From a virus: 64,000 nt of DNA. Where the stretch lies: the IMG/VR virus record IMGVR_UViG_3300034283_000433, positions 4,323 to 68,322 of that record; one strand, 5' to 3'. The notes beneath the pieces are model-generated. The model did not search any database. It had not been told where the DNA came from and saw nothing but the letters and a program-made list of their open reading frames with translations. This document shows positions 43,945 to 57,807 of the stretch, piece after piece; the first letter of the stretch is position 1, and each line of letters starts with the position of its first letter. A program made the translations under genes and the position numbers.

Positions 43945-44003
43945 TGCGCGCGCGTATGTACGCGTGTGTATGTGTGCGCGTGTACGTGTATGCGCACGTA
44001 TGC
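43945..44003. other. 59-bp strictly alternating pyrimidine-purine tract
   Basis: TGCGCGCGCGTATGTACGCGTGTG...GTATGC checked base by base. Confidence 0.9.
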
Positions 44004-44099
44004 CTGCGCGCTATATCCTTATACCACAGCTGTAAAAAATCTTTTAACAAAACCTTAACTAGGCTGTTGATTGCGGTATCAAAACTATTTTGCAGTTTT

Positions 44100-44436
44100 A
44101 CAATGTCAACGGGGACGACCTAATGACACAGCTCTTTTAACGTTTCTTTAACACTCTTGCATACCTGACCTCAATAAGTCACTTAGTCACTGCAAGTATG
44201 GTCTCGCTAGGCTTTCCGCTGTAAAGCGTTGTAGCAATCACGAAGAGTGAGAGAGACCCATCCGATGGTTATGATGGTGCATAAACTCAACCCTGCTTTT
44301 GGTTTCCCTAGGACTATAGGCAGTAAAACTAGGCGACGAAATGGTTCAGTTCCATAGTAGTTGAAGATGGCGCGTTTAAAAACGTTAGCTGTTCGGAGCG
44401 TTGGGTGACAGCAATGCCCTCTAAAATAACGATGTC
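44100..44436 (+). ncRNA. Structured RNA upstream of hammerhead (unknown class)
   Basis: GC-elevated, no ORF in the track; several multi-branch helices with G-U pairs on + strand. Confidence 0.6.
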
Positions 44437-44484
44437 CGCGGATAAATTACTCCGCGCTGATGAGCTGCAGAACAGCGAAACATT
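44431..44484 (+). ncRNA. Type III hammerhead ribozyme
   Basis: GAUGUC^ / stem I CGCGGA-UCCGCG / CUGAUGA / stem II GCUG-CAGC / GAAA / stem III ACAUU; cleavage predicted after 44436. Confidence 0.93.
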
Positions 44485-44498
44485 TAAACCTAAATACT

Positions 44499-44765
44499 AT
44501 GAAAGCTACAATTAACGGCACAATGCTAAACGAAGACAGATTTGTTATTGAATTAAACGCTGAACAAATGGAAGACCTAGCTGTCTACTACTTGCTAGAG
44601 TCTTGCAAGTGGGACGCTAAGAATATCAAGTACGATGGCAATGATATGAGACAAAGAGATACCTACAATAGATTAGCTGACAAGTACTACACAATGTACA
44701 AATCAATCAAGGCTATACAAGGTAAGGAAGAACCAATAGGTGTTGAATATATCCTAGAAAATTAA
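44499..44765 (+). CDS. First early protein, hypothetical
   Basis: ATG 44499 (MKATING) after A-rich leader, just past the ribozyme. Confidence 0.75.
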   Translation: MKATINGTMLNEDRFVIELNAEQMEDLAVYYLLESCKWDAKNIKYDGNDMRQRDTYNRLADKYYTMYKSIKAIQGKEEPIGVEYILEN

Positions 44766-44818
44766 TTAACCACGGGGGTTAACAGCCCCCACATTTTAAC
44801 CTAAAAAAATATACAATT

Positions 44819-45742
44819 ATGAGACAACAAACAGCACAACAAATGATGAACGATGCATCTAGATTCAGCGCACGCACAACCGCAGACGCGGAGCGCAAGA
44901 TTGACAACATCCTAGAGAACAGCAGACAAGACAATGTCTTCGTTGAGTCCTCTATTATTAGCTTATCTGAAATCACGGGAATGGACACGCGCAAAGGCCT
45001 AGAGCAGGCAGTTATTTGTGAGGGTCAAATCGTTAACGTGGTATCTTCTAGCTATGGCCACCTAGATAACCGCAAGTTCTACTACGAAGCAGAGTCCAAG
45101 CTAATTGATTCTGACATCTACTACAAACAGCGCTCTATCAACAAAGATAACCGCTCATTCGCTGTAGATTATGTACTTGCTGATGACCGCTACAAGATAT
45201 GCGTAAAGGGTGAAGAGGATGTACTACGTCCGATGTTACGATTCGTAAACTCTTACGATGGTAGCTGTAAGACTAGCGGCTCCTTTGGATTTTGGCGCAA
45301 AGTATGTGACAATGGACTACACGTTGCACATACTGAGATTGGATTCAGCGTTAAGCACCGCGGTAATATAGCAGACGTGGTAATGCCTAAGATGGACGAG
45401 ATTGTATCTAAGTTTATGGACAACGAGTTCTATACATTAAAACGCAAGTTTGAAGTATTGGCAGAGCGCCCCGTATACAACCTAGACGGATATGTAAAAG
45501 CTACAGCTAAATCATTAGGGCTGTTCAAGTACGAAGCTAGTGACAAGAACCCCGAGCCTAGCGCTAACGCTCGTTTTGTTCTAGATGTAATCAACCGCGA
45601 GACTAGACAATTGAATACACAACCTAACCAATGGATTGTATACAACGCGTTCAACGAATTGTTACACGGCAAGTTAAAGAAGACCTTTGACCAACAGCGT
45701 AACATTGACGAGCAATTGTTTGAGACTATCTATAATTCATAA
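44819..45742 (+). CDS. DUF932/DUF945-like early protein
   Basis: NSYDGS...GFWRKVCDNGL...KH motif and W..YNAFNE. Confidence 0.8.
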   Translation: MRQQTAQQMMNDASRFSARTTADAERKIDNILENSRQDNVFVESSIISLSEITGMDTRKGLEQAVICEGQIVNVVSSSYGHLDNRKFYYEAESKLIDSDIYYKQRSINKDNRSFAVDYVLADDRYKICVKGEEDVLRPMLRFVNSYDGSCKTSGSFGFWRKVCDNGLHVAHTEIGFSVKHRGNIADVVMPKMDEIVSKFMDNEFYTLKRKFEVLAERPVYNLDGYVKATAKSLGLFKYEASDKNPEPSANARFVLDVINRETRQLNTQPNQWIVYNAFNELLHGKLKKTFDQQRNIDEQLFETIYNS

Positions 45743-45788
45743 TCATAACCACGGGGGCGGGCAACTGCCCCCACAAAAACTATCATCA

Positions 45789-46010
45789 ATGGCAAAAGAA
45801 TTCAAAATCGGTGAGTACGCTGTAGGCGGTATCATCAAGGTAGATAAGGGTGCTAAATTAGTACGCATCCAAGCCCTAGATTGGGACGATAAGGATGTAT
45901 TAAGAAACAAAGTATTCCCCGTAGATTATACGGACGCTATGGACGAGTTCTTAAACGACTTGACCACTAGCTACTACGCAGACAAAATATTAGACTACAT
46001 TAAAAACTAA
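45789..46010 (+). CDS. Hypothetical early protein
   Basis: Start moved to MAKEFKIG (ATG 45789) after AAAAACTATCATCA leader. Confidence 0.7.
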   Translation: MAKEFKIGEYAVGGIIKVDKGAKLVRIQALDWDDKDVLRNKVFPVDYTDAMDEFLNDLTTSYYADKILDYIKN

Positions 46011-46541: not shown

Positions 46542-46573
46542 ACAATTATTATTTTATCTAAACTATTAACACA

Positions 46574-46780
46574 ATGAAAGAGTTATTTAACATTTATGTA
46601 GTATATAATCCTAAAAAAGAATATGTAATCAGATGGGAATCCGACAATAGTATAGTGTTGTATGGTAGCGAGCTTGACGCTACATATGACTGCAACGAAG
46701 ACGAGATTGTTATTACTGCAGATAAACTAAATAAAAAATATCAAGACGAAATATTATTGGAACTTAAACAATTAAACTAA
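46574..46780 (+). CDS. Hypothetical early protein
   Basis: Repeated TTATCTAAACTA leader. Confidence 0.65.
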   Translation: MKELFNIYVVYNPKKEYVIRWESDNSIVLYGSELDATYDCNEDEIVITADKLNKKYQDEILLELKQLN

Positions 46781-46787
46781 TAACACA

Positions 46788-47204
46788 ATGAACTATTCAT
46801 TTTATCTATTCGTAAACTTACGAAATGCCATACTTGGCGAAGGTGTTGAGTACGATTGTCAGTATGGTATTGACCAAACAATATTTGCAATGTACGAGAA
46901 ATCAAAGTACAATGAAGATAACACACCCGAGTACGAGTGTATGGTCAACTTCTTAAACGCATACAAGGACAATAAGATTGACATCATTATGGACAGCTTT
47001 AACAACTACCTAAACAAACACGATTGGGTAGTATTGCTTGATGAAAGCGGTATCAGTCACGACTTTCTTAAGCCTAGAAGAGGCGATGTATTGCAGTTTA
47101 TTAGAATCAATGACAACGACTCTACTATAGGTGAGTTCTTGCACTTACCCAGCAATCAACCGCTAAACATATTCGCTGACCGCACACTTAAACTAAATAA
47201 ATAA
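46788..47204 (+). CDS. Hypothetical early protein
   Basis: 138 aa, A-rich leader. Confidence 0.65.
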   Translation: MNYSFYLFVNLRNAILGEGVEYDCQYGIDQTIFAMYEKSKYNEDNTPEYECMVNFLNAYKDNKIDIIMDSFNNYLNKHDWVVLLDESGISHDFLKPRRGDVLQFIRINDNDSTIGEFLHLPSNQPLNIFADRTLKLNK

Positions 47205-47425: not shown

Positions 47426-47446
47426 ATTATCTAAACTAATAATACA

Positions 47447-47894: not shown

Positions 47895-47954
47895 GTTAAC
47901 GTGGGGAGCGTCACGTACAACGCTCACCTTTTTAAATTATCTAAACTAATAATT

Positions 47955-48209
47955 ATGTTAACACTAGAACAAGACAAACAATTAGAACAATTATGCGATG
48001 ACAATTCACCATATGTCATTATGAATGTAGTCAAAGAAGTATACAGCTCAGATAGAAAGCGCGACTTAATAGACGAGTGTATTGAGTTCCTACAAGACGA
48101 AGGATACCTTACTATTAAGCCATCTAATCTATTAGAACAGCAAAAGGTAGAAGACTTCATTGTAGAGTTGAAGCCACACTACAACGAGCGTCAATATCTA
48201 TTTATCTAA
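47955..48209 (+). CDS. Hypothetical early protein
   Basis: Start moved to ATG 47955 after repeated leader. Confidence 0.65.
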   Translation: MLTLEQDKQLEQLCDDNSPYVIMNVVKEVYSSDRKRDLIDECIEFLQDEGYLTIKPSNLLEQQKVEDFIVELKPHYNERQYLFI

Positions 48210-48221
48210 ACTATTAATATT

Positions 48222-51415: not shown

Positions 51416-51416
51416 A

Positions 51417-51447
51417 TTTGGTAATTTAAAAACTATTTATATCTTTG
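51417..51447 (+). promoter_or_regulatory. Consensus Bacteroidota sigma70 promoter
   Basis: TTTG-N19-TATCTTTG. Confidence 0.8.
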
Positions 51448-51452
51448 CTGTA

Positions 51453-51550
51453 CAAATCCGATAAGGTAGGGGATGACTTTATCGGGTATGTTTCAAGAAC
51501 TAACCCTTCTTAAGATATGCCCATTAGAATCCCCTCTAGTGGGCTTTTTT
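51453..51550 (+). ncRNA. ~100-nt two-hairpin RNA with complementary loops, ending in terminator
   Basis: 11-bp hairpin with loop AGGGGAUG; 9-bp hairpin with loop AAUCCCCU, then U6. Confidence 0.65.
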
Positions 51551-51956
51551 ATTCCACTTACCTACGGATATGAAGGATGCAGAAGCATCCCACTCATAGT
51601 TCCGAGTACAAGGAAGCTAGTAGCTAACGCCTGCAAAGATTCCGTTAACTACGAATATTCTTTTAAATGTATAGTATTGTTCTAGACTTCCGTAACTATA
51701 CAGCCTCACGTAACGACAACTCATTAACTCATTAGTATGTATGGTAAGATAGACAGGTCGTATCTCCTTTGGGGGTAGGGGGTATGACTTGCGTTTTTCT
51801 TACCTACGTTCACCAATCTATTAATCTATTAGTATGAATAAACATATAAGCACTACGCTCGGATTCGCGAAGTTTTTCGTAGTCTCCGTACCAATAGCTT
51901 GCGTAATATATACGTGCGCTATGTTGATAAGTTTTTGTAAAAAAACTATAGAAATA

Positions 51957-51988
51957 TTTGGCAAGTAGTATAACTATTTGTAGTTTCG
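51957..51988 (+). promoter_or_regulatory. Promoter for recombination/replication genes
   Basis: TTTG-N20-TAGTTTCG. Confidence 0.6.
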
Positions 51989-52010
51989 CAAACAATAAAA
52001 TATAAACAAT

Positions 52011-52631
52011 ATGAGTATCGTAAAAATCCAAGAGGAGCTAAAAGCTCCAAAGAACCAACGTAATAACTTTGGTGGCTACAACTATCGTAGCGCAGAAGAC
52101 ATCATTGAAGCTGTTAAACCTATAGCACACAGGTATGGTTACTACCTTATTATCTCAGATGAAATAGTAGAGGTAGGTGGACGTATCTACGTAAAAGCTA
52201 CAGCTAGATTACAGCCTAACGAAGCGGGTAATATATACTCCGCTACGGGATGGGCTAGAGAAGAAGAAACAAAGAAAGGTATGGATGGCGCGCAAATCAC
52301 AGGTGCTGCTAGTTCATACGCACGTAAGTATGCATTGAATGGCCTATTGGCTATTGATGATACAAAGGATGCAGACGCAACCAATACGCACGGCAAGGAA
52401 GAAGTTAGTAATGTAGCTGTACCACAAACAGCTCCAGCTGTTAGAGTATACCCTGCGAAGAATAGCTCAGATAAACCAGAAGACGATAAGGCTTGGTTAA
52501 ATAAGAATAACCCTAAATGGTCACTTATTGTACAGCAATTCAAGACAGGTGAAAACAATATCAATAACCTACGCAAGGAATTTAAGGTATCTAAGGCTGT
52601 AGAAGCTGAGTTAACAGCACTAAGCGTATAG
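52011..52631 (+). CDS. erf: ERF-family single-strand annealing protein
   Basis: KAPK.Q.N.FG.YNYRS.EDI...GAASSYARKYAL.GL..IDD..DAD. Confidence 0.85.
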   Translation: MSIVKIQEELKAPKNQRNNFGGYNYRSAEDIIEAVKPIAHRYGYYLIISDEIVEVGGRIYVKATARLQPNEAGNIYSATGWAREEETKKGMDGAQITGAASSYARKYALNGLLAIDDTKDADATNTHGKEEVSNVAVPQTAPAVRVYPAKNSSDKPEDDKAWLNKNNPKWSLIVQQFKTGENNINNLRKEFKVSKAVEAELTALSV

Positions 52632-52875: not shown

Positions 52876-52975
52876 ACGTATTGCCCTCCCACTTAAATTT
52901 ATTATTAATTAACAGGGGTGTTGGTTATGTAAATTGGGAGGGTAACCTTGTTTTATTTTAAATTGAAAAATCAAT

Positions 52976-53010
52976 GGCCTGCGGTGTTTCTACATTGGAG
53001 GCCGCTTTTT
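52976..53010 (+). terminator. Terminator-like hairpin with UUUCUA loop
   Basis: GGCCTGCGGTG-TTTCTA-CATTGGAGGCC then GCTTTTT. Confidence 0.6.
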
Positions 53011-53026
53011 TAAAAACAATTAACCA

Positions 53027-53782
53027 ATGATAACATTAGAACAACTACAAGAGCGACCACTTAGCTACAGCTCACTAAAAGAATTCGCTAAGAGTCCTCG
53101 TCACTACCTAGACTATCTAAACAGAAAGAAGGAGACTACAGCTCCTATGCTGTTTGGTAGTATGGTACACTGCCTATTGCTTGAACCATCTAAGTTTAAC
53201 GAAGAGTTTGCTGTGATGGGTACAATAGATAGACGCACATCTGCAGGAAAAGAAGCATACGCAAAGTTTGTAGAAGAGTCTGCAGGTAAAGAAGTAGTTA
53301 TGGAAAATGATTACAACGAGGCGAAAGGTTTAGCTGATAATGTTTTATCTAATCCTAAGTTAGCTCCGTGGATACATAACTGTCATCAATACGAGCAGGA
53401 GTTTCGCGCTGAAATGTGGGGTCTACCCGTACGTGGTTTCTTTGATGGTATAGCAGAAGACTATATACTTGAAGTTAAGACTACGATGGATGCGTCACCA
53501 GAAAATTTAATGCGTGACTTTTATAACAGACAATACCATATGCAGGCTGGATTGTATAATCTAGTTTCAAATAAACCTATCAAGTATCTTATCATAGAAA
53601 CGAAAGGCCCTTACGATGCGTACATTGCAGATGCAACAGAAAACTATATCAAGAAAGGTCAGGAGCTGTTTTCAGATACTATTGTTAAGTTTAACAAATG
53701 TATGGAAGACAATGCGTGGACTAAAGGATACGAATACCATAATAACAATATTACGATAGACCTGCCATCGTGGGTAAAATAA
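53027..53782 (+). CDS. RecE/exonuclease VIII-like PD-(D/E)XK exonuclease (DUF3799-like)
   Basis: LSYSSLK, GS..H..LLEP, RG..D.....EVKTT, Y..QA..Y. Confidence 0.85.
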   Translation: MITLEQLQERPLSYSSLKEFAKSPRHYLDYLNRKKETTAPMLFGSMVHCLLLEPSKFNEEFAVMGTIDRRTSAGKEAYAKFVEESAGKEVVMENDYNEAKGLADNVLSNPKLAPWIHNCHQYEQEFRAEMWGLPVRGFFDGIAEDYILEVKTTMDASPENLMRDFYNRQYHMQAGLYNLVSNKPIKYLIIETKGPYDAYIADATENYIKKGQELFSDTIVKFNKCMEDNAWTKGYEYHNNNITIDLPSWVK

Positions 53783-53783
53783 A

Positions 53784-53814
53784 TTTGGCAGTTTCGCAAA
53801 AGTTTGTATATTCG
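53784..53814 (+). promoter_or_regulatory. Bacteroidota-type promoter
   Basis: TTTG-N19-TATATTCG. Confidence 0.65.
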
Positions 53815-53818
53815 CAAT

Positions 53819-53874
53819 GGGTTTTCTCATCATTGTGTTAAATATAGGGGGTGCTAGGCATAGATAGTACCCCC
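53819..53874 (+). ncRNA. Candidate sRNA or leader: antisense seed plus 10-bp hairpin
   Basis: UCAUUGUGUUA(A) complementary to starts of genes at 46574, 46788, 57397; hairpin GGGGGTGCTA/TAGTACCCCC. Confidence 0.45.
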
Positions 53875-53889
53875 AAACTTTAGAAACTT

Positions 53890-54252
53890 ATGGGTAGATT
53901 TGATACCTTAAAAATAAATACGAGATTCCTGCCTATATCAGATGCGCAGGAGCTTGAAGACCTTTCGGATTTGGAATTCCAAACGAAAGACCTAGAAAAA
54001 CAATTCTTAGAATATGAAGTAGGCGAAGATGGTTATTTGTATTTTGAAGACTACGAATACGAAATGATACCATCCGACAATCCTGAAGGACTATTTAATA
54101 TTAACCTAAGAAAGATTAACCAAACCATTAAAAAAAGCTACCACACAGGTGACGTTGAGTTTTACGGGAAACCTTGGGAGTATATGTATACATTCAAGGC
54201 ACACTTCCAAGACGGGAAACTAGAAAGGGTAGACTTGATAAACAAAGAATAG
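53890..54252 (+). CDS. Conserved phage protein
   Basis: MG.FD...FQTKDL...F.DGKL motif. Confidence 0.7.
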   Translation: MGRFDTLKINTRFLPISDAQELEDLSDLEFQTKDLEKQFLEYEVGEDGYLYFEDYEYEMIPSDNPEGLFNINLRKINQTIKKSYHTGDVEFYGKPWEYMYTFKAHFQDGKLERVDLINKE

Positions 54253-54500: not shown

Positions 54501-54584
54501 TTTAATACGGACATACAATCACACGCCCTGCGTTTCTACGTGGGGCTCATTTTGAAAATTTTTAACCAATAAAACATAGACACA

Positions 54585-54911: not shown

Positions 54912-54945
54912 TTTTTCTTTTTTTGATTCATAATTATAATTTGTC

Positions 54946-54976
54946 CCTCACGGCCTAAAAATCGTGAGGGTTTTTT
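54946..54976 (+). terminator. Intrinsic terminator
   Basis: CCCTCACGG-CCTAAAAA-TCGTGAGGG-TTTTTT. Confidence 0.75.
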
Positions 54977-54982
54977 ACCACT

Positions 54983-56803
54983 ATGCAATACACGGTAACA
55001 GTATTTAACAACATTAGAAACGTAACAGACCCTATTGAAAAGGACTTACGTGATGTTCTTATGGCCATCAGAGATGGTGCATACAAAGAACAAGTAGAAG
55101 CAATACGTAATTGCACAGACTCCTATAAAATCCCTTCCCTCAAACAAAATCTTCCGTGTGTACTTTACGCTGGGCTGTTTAAAAAGCCTGTAGAAAAAGT
55201 ATACGACAACGGACAAAAATATATATCGTATAGAGACGATAAATCATTAACCATACATAGTGGCTTTGTACCTATAGATATGGATGGTATAACAGATATA
55301 CCTGCTAAGAAAGAAGAACTAAAACAGAACCCATACATCTTTGCGCTGTGGACATCCGCTAGTGGCAAGGGTATACACGGCCTTATAAAGATTGGTGATA
55401 CCAATAAACATACGGAGCACTACAAGGCTATCTTGGAATTGATTCCAGACCTTGACCCTACAGCTAGAAATCCTTCACGTGTGCTGTATATGTCTTACGA
55501 CCCTGATATGTATGTTAATAGTTCAGCTAGCATATTCTACAATATTGTAAAAGAAGAAGAATTAAAGGCTGCTAATATCGTATATGGTGATGGATATACT
55601 GACTATAGAAAGTTGGATATCGCATCTAGGATGATTAGACTCGCTAAGGAAGGCGAGAAACACCACGTTCTATTGAAAGCTGCACACCTTATGGGTGGAT
55701 ACGTAGCAACTAAACATATAGAGTATGACATTGCTTTTAATATACTTGTTCACGAAATTTCTAAAAAAGATGTGCAAGACTTAAATCTTGCGAAGAAAAC
55801 TATAGAGGATGGTATGCGTCACGGTATGACGATGCCTATATCTGAAATAGAAACTCAGTTCAGAGAAGCTGCACGTATCATTGGAGTACAAGAAGAGGAC
55901 TTAGCTTTCCTCTCATCTAATCCTAAAGACGATGACTTTATTTATAAATTCAGGTCTGGTCTTATCCCTATGGGATTACCGTTTGGATATACTGAGATGG
56001 ACGAGCATTTAAGGCTCAAGGAAGGCGAATTCTACGCATCCCTAGCGCATAGTCACATTGGTAAAACAACCGTGAATCTGTGGCTTATATTCCTATCTGC
56101 GATACACTACGATTGGAATTGGATGATGTATATGGGTGAGAATCAGTCTGCTTCTATCAAGATGAAGCTAATGGAATTCTTTATCGGTAAGAAGATTAAG
56201 GATATGAACGACCACGAACACAACGTATCACTACGTTTCGTAGAGGAGCACTTCTTTATTCTGTCTACAGATAATATGTATACATACGGAGAAATCTTAG
56301 ATAACGCTAAGGTTCTAATGCAATACAAATCTTTGAAGGGTGTATTTATAGACCCATACAATAGCCTTAAGATGGAGCTGACAACAGCTAAGAACAAATA
56401 CATCTATGACTACGAGGCGTACAGTGAAATGTTAAACTTCACTAAGAAATACAACACAACTATATTCTTATCTGTTCATACTACGACAGCATCACAAAGA
56501 GAACGTGACAGCGAAGGCAACCAGAAGATGCCACACGCAGCTGATACAGAGGGTGGCGCAGCATTGTATAATAGGGTAGATAACTTTATAACTTTGCATA
56601 GAAAGATTAAGAGTCAGGACGAGTGGATGTATACGCAAGTATCAATAGACAAGGTTAGAAACGGAGAGACGGGTGGTATGCCTACGCGTGTTGGTAATCC
56701 TTGTATCATCAAGATGAATAGAGGTATAGAGTTTACTGATATGAATGGTGCACTACCATTTAATAGAGACCAATTATTACTTAAATATAAATGTAAATTT
56801 TAG
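54983..56803 (+). CDS. Primase-helicase (BT4734/VirE-N-like primase domain plus DnaB-like SF4 helicase)
   Basis: K..LP, SG.VPID.D, S.SG.G.H, R..YMSYDP; AHSHIGKT, FIDPYN, LSVH, KVR..ETGG. Confidence 0.85.
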   Translation: MQYTVTVFNNIRNVTDPIEKDLRDVLMAIRDGAYKEQVEAIRNCTDSYKIPSLKQNLPCVLYAGLFKKPVEKVYDNGQKYISYRDDKSLTIHSGFVPIDMDGITDIPAKKEELKQNPYIFALWTSASGKGIHGLIKIGDTNKHTEHYKAILELIPDLDPTARNPSRVLYMSYDPDMYVNSSASIFYNIVKEEELKAANIVYGDGYTDYRKLDIASRMIRLAKEGEKHHVLLKAAHLMGGYVATKHIEYDIAFNILVHEISKKDVQDLNLAKKTIEDGMRHGMTMPISEIETQFREAARIIGVQEEDLAFLSSNPKDDDFIYKFRSGLIPMGLPFGYTEMDEHLRLKEGEFYASLAHSHIGKTTVNLWLIFLSAIHYDWNWMMYMGENQSASIKMKLMEFFIGKKIKDMNDHEHNVSLRFVEEHFFILSTDNMYTYGEILDNAKVLMQYKSLKGVFIDPYNSLKMELTTAKNKYIYDYEAYSEMLNFTKKYNTTIFLSVHTTTASQRERDSEGNQKMPHAADTEGGAALYNRVDNFITLHRKIKSQDEWMYTQVSIDKVRNGETGGMPTRVGNPCIIKMNRGIEFTDMNGALPFNRDQLLLKYKCKF

Positions 56804-57041: not shown

Positions 57042-57400
57042 AATACTCCTCTAGCTTTACACACGACCTAGCCTTTGGAGAAAAGGCAGAGGATTGGGTA
57101 AACGATATTTTTAAAAATGGAAAGAAGGTTGAAGTTAAGTATGACAGGATTGCTCACAAGACAGGGAACATATTCATAGAGTATGAGTCAAGAGGCAAGC
57201 CTAGTGGTATAGCTACAACAGACGCAGACTATTGGATTTATAAATTAGAAAAGACAGAATGCGCTATAATTCTACCTGTAGAATACCTAAAAGAAAAACT
57301 TCGTTCTTATTACCACGAAGGAATATATTTAATCAATGGAGGAGATAACAATACGTCAAAAGGATTTTTAGTACCAATAAATAAAATAATAACACAATGA
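57038..57400 (+). CDS. PD-(D/E)XK nuclease-like protein
   Basis: VEVK.D.....TGN.FIE..SRGKPSGI..T.ADYW. Confidence 0.75.
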   Translation: MKYSSSFTHDLAFGEKAEDWVNDIFKNGKKVEVKYDRIAHKTGNIFIEYESRGKPSGIATTDADYWIYKLEKTECAIILPVEYLKEKLRSYYHEGIYLINGGDNNTSKGFLVPINKIITQ

Positions 57401-57807
57401 AACCCGTAAATGTAAGTTTTAACGTAGGCTCTTTTGAAGAGAAACAATTCAACGAATGCAAAGTTATGTATGCAAAGTTCCAAGAGTCTGTATCTAAACA
57501 GATAGACTGCTCTGACCCTAATCAAATCATAGAGCATATGACAGAGTTAACATCTATGCTAAGTATGGGTGCTGTTTGTAAAGCTACCCTTGAATATCTA
57601 ACAGATAAGTTATCCGTAAAGGCTTTGATGAACCTGAGAGATATTGATGGTAGTGCTAATGAGCGAAAGGTAATGTTAGCCTTTGCTATTGGAGATTGTA
57701 GCTTCTATAACAATGTAGTAGAGTTATTAATCAAAGAAGCACACTATAAGATAGAAATACTTAGAAGTTCTTTATCTTACTGCAAATCAGAATTAAACAT
57801 TCAGTAG
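57397..57807 (+). CDS. Helical hypothetical protein
   Basis: C-terminal LRS.LSY.K.E; ATGA coupling. Confidence 0.65.
   Translation: MKPVNVSFNVGSFEEKQFNECKVMYAKFQESVSKQIDCSDPNQIIEHMTELTSMLSMGAVCKATLEYLTDKLSVKALMNLRDIDGSANERKVMLAFAIGDCSFYNNVVELLIKEAHYKIEILRSSLSYCKSELNIQ

Follow-up and report, generated by a model that had tools for sequence, protein, structure and literature searches.

The DNA analyzed here (hereafter the window) comprises 64,000 nucleotides and represents most of a 68.3-kb virus record that was found in lake-water metagenomes. Structural genes are encoded on the minus strand up to ~43 kb, and many small genes are encoded on the plus strand at 44–60 kb; a gene-free stretch of 336 nt (44124–44459) is located where the genes switch from the minus to the plus strand, and the 2-kb bin that includes this stretch (44001–46000) has the highest G+C content of the window (0.42 vs. 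~0.36). The leaders in the window are A-rich and contain no Shine-Dalgarno sequence, and TAnnTTTGC-like boxes precede many genes; from these leader and promoter signals, we infer a Bacteroidota host for the phage. A search of genome contigs returned distant homologues only (≤40% identity), in MAGs of Rhodocyclaceae and Thermoanaerobaculia, and was uninformative on the host or the leader.

The element under study (53784–53874) has an Erf gene (52011–52631) and a PD-(D/E)XK exonuclease gene (53027–53782) as neighbours, and is followed on the plus strand by a gene for a protein of 120 amino acids (aa; 53890–54252; phrog_1615). The latter gene is the first of a small operon (120, 77 and 108 aa) within the recombination/replication module, with a primase/helicase gene (BT4734-like N-terminal domain; 54983–56803) downstream. 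Terminators of this unit are located at 54525 and 54945; the second (54945–54976, plus strand), an intrinsic terminator recovered in the terminator scan, ends the unit. It is strong and lies 6 nt before the start of the primase/helicase gene, and expression of the primase must therefore be by read-through. The position of a terminator before the primase is kept in all five relatives that were fetched whole (G001–G005), with differing stems. The initial annotation had placed a weaker element of the type studied here at 54912–54976; this sequence comprises the 3' UTR of the 108-aa gene together with the intrinsic terminator, and its best anti-start matches are of 9–10 nt and of low complexity.

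The 120-aa product looks like a widespread phage protein of unassigned function. It contains an invariant DLEFQTK motif, and its structure was modelled with confidence as all-beta (pLDDT 83); the BFVD matches of the model are uncharacterised phage proteins only, and the PDB gave no match at E-values up to 0.001. No significant Pfam family was assigned, RegA included, and there was no hint of RNA binding. All matches are uncharacterised proteins, of cyanophages (S-CAM7, S-TIM5), of a Proteus phage, and of others.

Two other stretches nearby contain hairpins. At 51416–51550, a 7-bp hairpin (CCGATAA/TTATCGG) lies downstream of TTTG...TATCTTTG, which resembles a promoter, and a strong terminator (51519–51550) comes next, inside a weak 70-aa open reading frame (ORF); a second hairpin with a T-run is found at 51754–51800, and the region extends to 51833. 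As a candidate for a discrete small RNA, this poorly coding stretch of ~400 nt from 51416 looks more promising than 53784–53874. In the spacer of 151 nt before the exonuclease gene (52876–53026), CCCTCCCA and TGGGAGGG form an inverted repeat over a long range, and a hairpin that resembles a terminator, T-run included, immediately precedes the exonuclease start region.

The sequence 53784–53818 is predicted to be a strongly conserved promoter of the Bacteroidota type, for which the consensus TTTG/TANNTTTG is quoted in PMC6847099. A −33-like TTTG (53784–53787, plus strand; alignment column conserved) is located 19 nt upstream of a −7 box, TATATTCG (53807–53814), which is part of an invariant block, TTGTATATTCGCAAT (53804–53818), that is found exactly in G001–G005. 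The order of TTTG-N19-TATATTCG, U/G stretch and 10-bp hairpin that the initial annotation described was thus recovered at the same positions. In Flavobacterium johnsoniae, the −7 box TAnnTTTG has the nearly invariant positions T-12, A-11, T-8, T-7, T-6 and G-5, as given in PMC6847099; TATATTCG matches five of these six and has a C at −6, where the consensus is that of F. johnsoniae and the phage host is a putative one. The same TTCG variant is present in the −7 box of the erf promoter of the same phage. An additional conserved box, AGTTTCGCAAAA (53790–53801, plus strand), is nearly the same as a box before the erf gene (~51980–51991), and may be a second weak −7-like box or a part of the promoter. 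The transcription start is predicted at 53819 (plus strand), counted from 53814, because the −7 box of F. johnsoniae has its G at −5 (PMC6847099). An ORF of 16 aa from an ATG at 53817 was rejected; the relatives read CGCAATA, and its position is at or before the predicted start. An inverted repeat, CAATG (53815–53819) and CATTG (53831–53835), spans the predicted start, and in G001 and G002 ATTGTG is found again, 7 and 20 nt, respectively, from the invariant CGCAAT.

For a comparison across relatives, 36 loci encoding close relatives of the 120-aa protein (62–100% identity) were used, with the more distant L162–L165 and L187–L214 left out. These loci represent 25 distinct upstream variants, all of which contain TTGTATATTCGCAAT or at least TTCGCAAT between diverging flanks. 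A scan of viral contigs with the exact 15-nt promoter block gave at least eight loci in the right context, those listed all belonging to lineages of the comparison. In the window, the strict promoter motif has 8 matches vs. 4.4 ± 2.3 in mononucleotide shuffles; since this enrichment is weak, the promoter call rests on conservation.

Spacer and hairpin are present in 15 of the 25 upstream variants and are both missing from the other 10 (G005 and the L155–L161 groups), in which the same promoter leads to the same 120-aa gene via a leader of 16–20 nt. The promoter therefore serves the 120-aa gene, and spacer and hairpin represent an insert in its leader. Of the separate small-RNA gene with its own promoter that had been proposed for this site, the promoter is supported, as a conserved one of the Bacteroidota type, and the separate gene is not.

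The leader in the window begins with a U/G-rich 5' arm (53819–53846, plus strand), which is unpaired in the minimum-free-energy (MFE) and centroid folds of 53820–53878; it includes the U/G-rich stretch GGGTTTTCTCATCATTGTGTTAA (53819–53841) and therein the 12-mer TCATTGTGTTAA (53830–53841), the complement of three start regions in the window. The right half of the inverted repeat across the predicted start lies within this 12-mer. The arm is followed by the hairpin (53847–53874) and by an A-rich leader end (53875–53889) directly before the start codon at 53890. The two variant spacers in the window's group show eight substitutions, of which seven are in the first 11 nt and one is in the last 17 nt (by eye); these last 17 nt, which hold the 12-mer, are the best-conserved part of the leader in the window's own group, and the interiors of the hairpins are exchanged wholesale (by eye). 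In L174, the seed carries a T-to-A change. The lineages of G001, G002 and L183 also have the core TTGTGTT. Four metatranscriptome runs provided a few low-depth contigs, one on 53771–53895 and one on 53856–54121; these contigs carry neither ends nor strand, and DNA carry-over is possible.

The hairpin consists of two arms (53847–53856 and 53865–53874, plus strand) that form 10 base pairs (one G.U; six of the 10 are G-C) around an 8-nt loop, GGCATAGA, with a predicted energy of −19.5 kcal/mol (z = −3.0). The G+C-rich stem-loop is as in an intrinsic terminator. A U-tract after the stem is absent; the window reads AAACTTTAG instead, and the relatives read AAAyTTT(T)A. The hairpin is not listed in the terminator scan of the window, in which the clear terminators at 51519 and 54945 have T-runs. 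As it ends 15 nt upstream of the ATG of a conserved gene and has no U-tract, the element is read as a 5' leader and not as a terminated small-RNA gene.

All 12 variants examined fold into the hairpin (−13 to −18 kcal/mol). In the alignment fold of these variants, five of nine pairs have changes on both sides and eight of the nine are never broken, and G.U is found at one position in seven cases and U.G at another in five. The compensatory and G.U changes indicate that the hairpin is kept by selection, as RNA on the plus strand. A covariance model recovered the homologous locus only, in five genomes (next match, E = 0.38), hence a single-copy element; a repeat or mobile hairpin family was rejected on the same result. 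No Rfam 15 family matched in the window at gathering scores, and a search of 53700–54000 at E-values up to 10 gave nothing other than one chance miRNA row, with the GibS and FopS families unmatched.

The interior of the hairpin turns over much faster than its flanks. The locus L166 (hairpin at 1461–1486) encodes a 120-aa protein 100% identical to that of the window and has the same spacer and leader, with a different stem interior and loop in place of 53847–53874; the hairpin interiors of L169 and L174 also differ from that of the window. The loop motif GCATAG(A) (53857–53864) recurs in the window, G002, G003, G004 and L183. In the window, G002, G003 and G004, the loop GCAUAG is the 6-nt complement of CUAUGC at the primase start (54980–54988), and G001 has another loop and a primase start that reads CTATGA; a complement of this length is too short to weigh.

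Taken together, the stretch probably comprises a conserved promoter and a structured leader, the 5' untranslated region of the 120-aa gene at 53890. The leader lies between a promoter and the start codon of a conserved gene, and its structure is kept through compensatory change. A host sigma-A-type promoter (TTTG, 19 nt, TATATTCG) would fire at ~53819 to give a transcript that opens with ~28 unpaired, U/G-rich bases; a stable hairpin of 10 bp would form next, and 15 A-rich bases would lead from the hairpin to the start codon. We infer the start at 53819 and a role of the leader in cis: the hairpin would most likely serve as a clamp, marking the 5' limit of the site where the ribosome lands, or it would slow mRNA decay. 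That the 12-mer is complementary to three start regions would be a by-product, in that a U/G-rich leader meets a small vocabulary of A/C-rich start regions without Shine-Dalgarno sequences.

The complement itself is real. The reverse complement of 53830–53841 is found exactly at 46566–46577 and with one mismatch at 46780–46791 and 57389–57400, all on the plus strand. The matches represent the start regions of a 68-aa gene (12 nt at 46566–46577, covering the ATG at 46574), of a 138-aa gene (11 nt at 46781–46791, covering the ATG at 46788; its orthologue in G001 is the partner of the G001 leader) and of a 136-aa gene (57390–57405; 11 nt at 57390–57400, covering the ATG at 57397, plus AACCC). The complements across three AUGs that the initial annotation listed were thereby confirmed, as was the additional predicted pairing of GGGTT with AACCC on the mRNA of the 57397 gene, for which RNAduplex gave a valid duplex with a 6-nt bulge (−15.3 kcal/mol). 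A pattern search for the 12-mer complement yielded 4 matches vs. 0.73 expected. The three plus-strand copies are not independent, since they are members of one family of near-identical early-gene leaders, and hence only the single reverse copy is in question. Perfect complements of at least 12 nt to segments that overlap a start codon exist at ~21 other places in the window on either strand (30 matches; places counted by eye), and 3 of 18 non-trivial plus-strand intergenic segments of the early region reach at least 12 nt. The best duplex of the spacer (−16.6 kcal/mol vs. −15.2 ± 1.9) is reached by 60 of 300 dinucleotide shuffles (20%), its third-best duplex energy by 5% of the 300, and its best energy by 25% of shuffles made with a second method; the shuffle-controlled target prediction proposed as a check is therefore not significant in the window (p ~0.2–0.25). 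Complementarity to three start codons does not clearly exceed what chance would give.

Early genes in the window do have leaders in common, in agreement with the initial annotation. A leader tag, TTATCTAAACTA[A/T]TAA, is common to four early genes (46554–46569, 47427–47442, 47937–47952 and 48202–48217), and whole leaders are common to the gene pairs 46015 with 46194 and 45789 with 47772. A reverse copy of this tag was not found in the window. A master anti-leader was rejected; the tag has no such copy, and start-region matches at 8 or 9 nt are not enriched (p 0.05–1.0).

The free arm of each leader was compared with all start regions of its own genome in the window and the relatives. The longest exact complement beats shuffles in three of five lineages: it is 12 nt in the window (p = 0.026), 13 nt in G001 (16 bp with one G.U, at the start of the orthologous 138-aa gene; p = 0.008), and 13 nt in G003, where a different section of the arm matches positions −25 to −13 of an early gene of 88 aa (p = 0.005). 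No excess was seen for G002 and G004 (p = 0.77 and 0.45). With genome windows of the same length as the null, the window, G001 and G003 rank in the top 0.84%, 0.22% and 0.30%, respectively. The duplex energy of G001 is −18.5 vs. −12.7 ± 1.6 kcal/mol, which one of 150 shuffles reaches (p 0.007); energies are not significant in the window (p 0.20–0.25), G002 (0.66), G003 (0.27) and G004 (0.60). The match in G003 depends on a limit of −30 that was set after it had been seen, and with a start window of −20 to +10 it is 9 nt (p = 0.38). A composition-matched control in the complement-only orientation reached 13 nt in G002 and 11 nt in G001, and the shuffles therefore understate chance in A/C-rich leader vocabularies. 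Leaders showed no preference for their own genome in a 6 x 6 cross-genome table, the orthologue in G002 of the G003 target (88-aa gene leader) is not complementary, and the count of leaders matched by the arm is not enriched. Near relatives show two A-to-G substitutions within target 12-mers, and both retain the pairing as G.U; beyond these two wobble-preserving changes, no joint change of seed and target was found in the relatives, and hence no lineage-specific covariation with targets.

Several points stand against a plain leader: the 17 nt that bear the putative seed are best conserved, TTGTGTT recurs, the G001 duplex is strong, three of five lineages have an exact-match excess, the −7 box has a C where T is nearly invariant, and ~28 free bases precede the hairpin. 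Hairpins that simply stabilise an mRNA normally form its extreme 5' end, with no run of 28 free bases ahead of them. The leader might, though we consider this unlikely, be a trans regulator as well, its free arm being a seed that would span the start codons of the 68-, 138- and 136-aa genes by base pairing and block ribosome binding, on the whole mRNA or on a fragment cut behind the hairpin. Middle-gene transcription would then turn down earlier genes, a doubtful proposition that corresponds to the idea of the initial annotation minus the terminator. In its general form, a middle-gene leader that doubles as an anti-start riboregulator, with a free seed, a clamp hairpin, no terminator, and a seed retuned in each lineage, is put forward here with little confidence; equally tentative are its putative targets (the 68-, 138- and 136-aa starts here, the 138-aa start in G001 and the 88-aa leader in G003), and a shutdown of earlier genes once the replication genes are transcribed seems rather improbable too. 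Consistent with such a role, the complements of 12, 11 and 11 nt all cover an AUG, all three genome-wide matches of at least 11 nt sit at start regions, and the layout is like that of GibS and FopS of Bacteroides (sigma-A promoter, free 5' seed, hairpin, and near-start pairing, as described in PMC11697453 and PMC7366714). Between the G001 leader and the start of the orthologous 138-aa gene, 13 Watson-Crick pairs are predicted (16 if one G.U is counted), in a duplex whose energy 1 of 150 shuffles reaches, and the G003 leader has a different 13-nt complement in an 88-aa early gene; the longest-match p-values (0.026, 0.008 and 0.005) and genome-window ranks (0.84%, 0.22% and 0.30%) of three of five lineages, the conserved seed part of the spacer, and the two A-to-G target changes that retain G.U pairs point the same way. 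Against it, the energies do not significantly exceed those of shuffles in the window, G002, G003 and G004, the G003 match vanishes with the −20 to +10 window, the control orientation attains 13 nt (G002) and 11 nt (G001), and the core and target are common to the window and G001 by descent. Neither own-genome specificity nor an enrichment of matched leaders is seen, the G002 orthologue of the G003 target is unmatched, no U-tract means no defined 3' end, and 10 of 25 variants do without the element altogether.

A switch in cis, in which the CAU of the spacer and its flanks reach around the hairpin to pair with the start region of the 120-aa gene itself, or ATTGTG pairs with CGCAAT in read-through transcripts, is improbable in our view, as is a dependence of 120-aa translation on an alternative fold or a bound protein, to which we give just as little weight. 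The MFE fold of 53820–53920 does pair UCAU with AUGG and UUAAA with UUUAG (pairing probability of the AUG bases, 0.56–0.86), L149, L176, L152 and L153 are predicted to extend the hairpin by a lower stem rich in A/U, and the CAATG/CATTG repeat and the ATTGTG at varying distance in G001 and G002 would suit a switch; the centroid fold, however, keeps four flanking pairs only, the z-score of the long fold is −1.8, and the AUG pairing probability is anywhere between 0.04 and 0.94, depending on the variant, and the variants have no fold in common. Pairings between A/U-rich flanks are expected by chance, and CGCAAT lies upstream of the predicted start and so would be present in read-through RNA only. 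A discrete small-RNA gene with promoter, seed and own terminator is very unlikely: promoter and hairpin are in the right order, in the canonical layout of Bacteroides small RNAs (as outlined in PMC11697453), but AAACTTTAG rather than a T-run follows the hairpin, which is absent from the terminator scan and from Rfam, and hairpin-less relatives use the same promoter for the 120-aa gene. It is still harder to credit that the minus strand is functional here, with the 12-mer as the leader of a 53-aa reverse ORF (53833 down to 53672) or as a DNA operator. On the minus strand, the leader-plus-ATG 12-mer is indeed present, and 53 aa of open frame come after it; this ORF, however, extends over the promoter and over 111 nt of the exonuclease gene, and the G.U pairs of the hairpin point to the plus strand. 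The ATG is shifted in G001, so the frame across the invariant block differs; the ORF (53672–53833) was rejected, as its frame is not kept in G001 and G002, G003 and L183 have no ATG. For a dimeric operator, the variable spacing of the half-sites (7, 11 and 20 nt) is unsuited.

The preferred reading, a promoter with a structured leader, is ordinary in itself; the locus provides a clean case of host-type Bacteroidota promoters and of hairpin selection at the RNA level in uncultivated freshwater phages. If the early start regions were indeed paired, this would represent RNA-based timing of phage genes in a phylum whose mRNAs lack Shine-Dalgarno sequences and in which the start-codon region would be the only handle for such control, and it would be an example of an mRNA leader that acts in trans without a terminator.

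Among known systems, RegA of phage T4 is a protein for translational repression of early genes, and the 5' stabiliser hairpins are represented by the ompA leader of Escherichia coli and the aprE and ermC leaders of Bacillus subtilis. Common start regions of early genes as a control point, and a replication gene cluster, are reminiscent of RegA; RegA, however, is a protein, and the 120-aa product encoded here has no Pfam RegA match. With the stabiliser hairpins, the present element has in common a stable stem-loop upstream of the ribosome landing site and a possible protective role; these hairpins are located within a few bases of the 5' end, whereas the present one is located behind ~28 free bases. 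SreA of Listeria is a riboswitch-derived, 5' UTR-derived small RNA, and BTnc259 is a 5' UTR-derived small RNA of Bacteroides thetaiotaomicron (PMC7366714). Such RNAs begin at an mRNA start site and may act in trans, as would the proposed leader RNA; in the accounts considered, they end at a terminator or a mapped processing site, whereas the present leader has no U-tract to define a 3' end.

In GibS and FopS of B. thetaiotaomicron, a sigma-A promoter is followed by a free 5' seed and by a hairpin that serves as the terminator, and the two RNAs base-pair close to start codons (PMC7366714, PMC11697453). The likeness extends to the canonical Bacteroidota promoter, the seed-capable free 5' stretch, the hairpin, and putative targets that are start regions without Shine-Dalgarno sequences. 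GibS and FopS are described there as discrete RNAs with a Rho-independent terminator and validated targets, whereas the present element has no U-tract, is followed by a gene 15 nt on, leaves the Rfam models unmatched, and has predicted targets only. Structured 5' leaders are common in flavobacteria; for Flavobacterium psychrophilum, a mean 5' UTR of 65 nt, a median leader of 24 nt and 64 structured 5' regions are given in PMC9723704. These leaders are likewise located between a sigma-A-type promoter and the start codon, with a conserved stem-loop to which no function is assigned; the phage leader is longer than the flavobacterial median of 24 nt (PMC9723704). The present element is phage-borne and found in some lineages of one gene family only, and its hairpin interior is replaced even between phages with identical 120-aa proteins (L166), unlike in the flavobacterial leaders as compared here. 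The layout is thus like that of GibS and FopS, but the tests for a terminator and for a family model were negative, and each feature looked for in a structured 5' leader was found; the element is therefore most plausibly a promoter with a structured leader.
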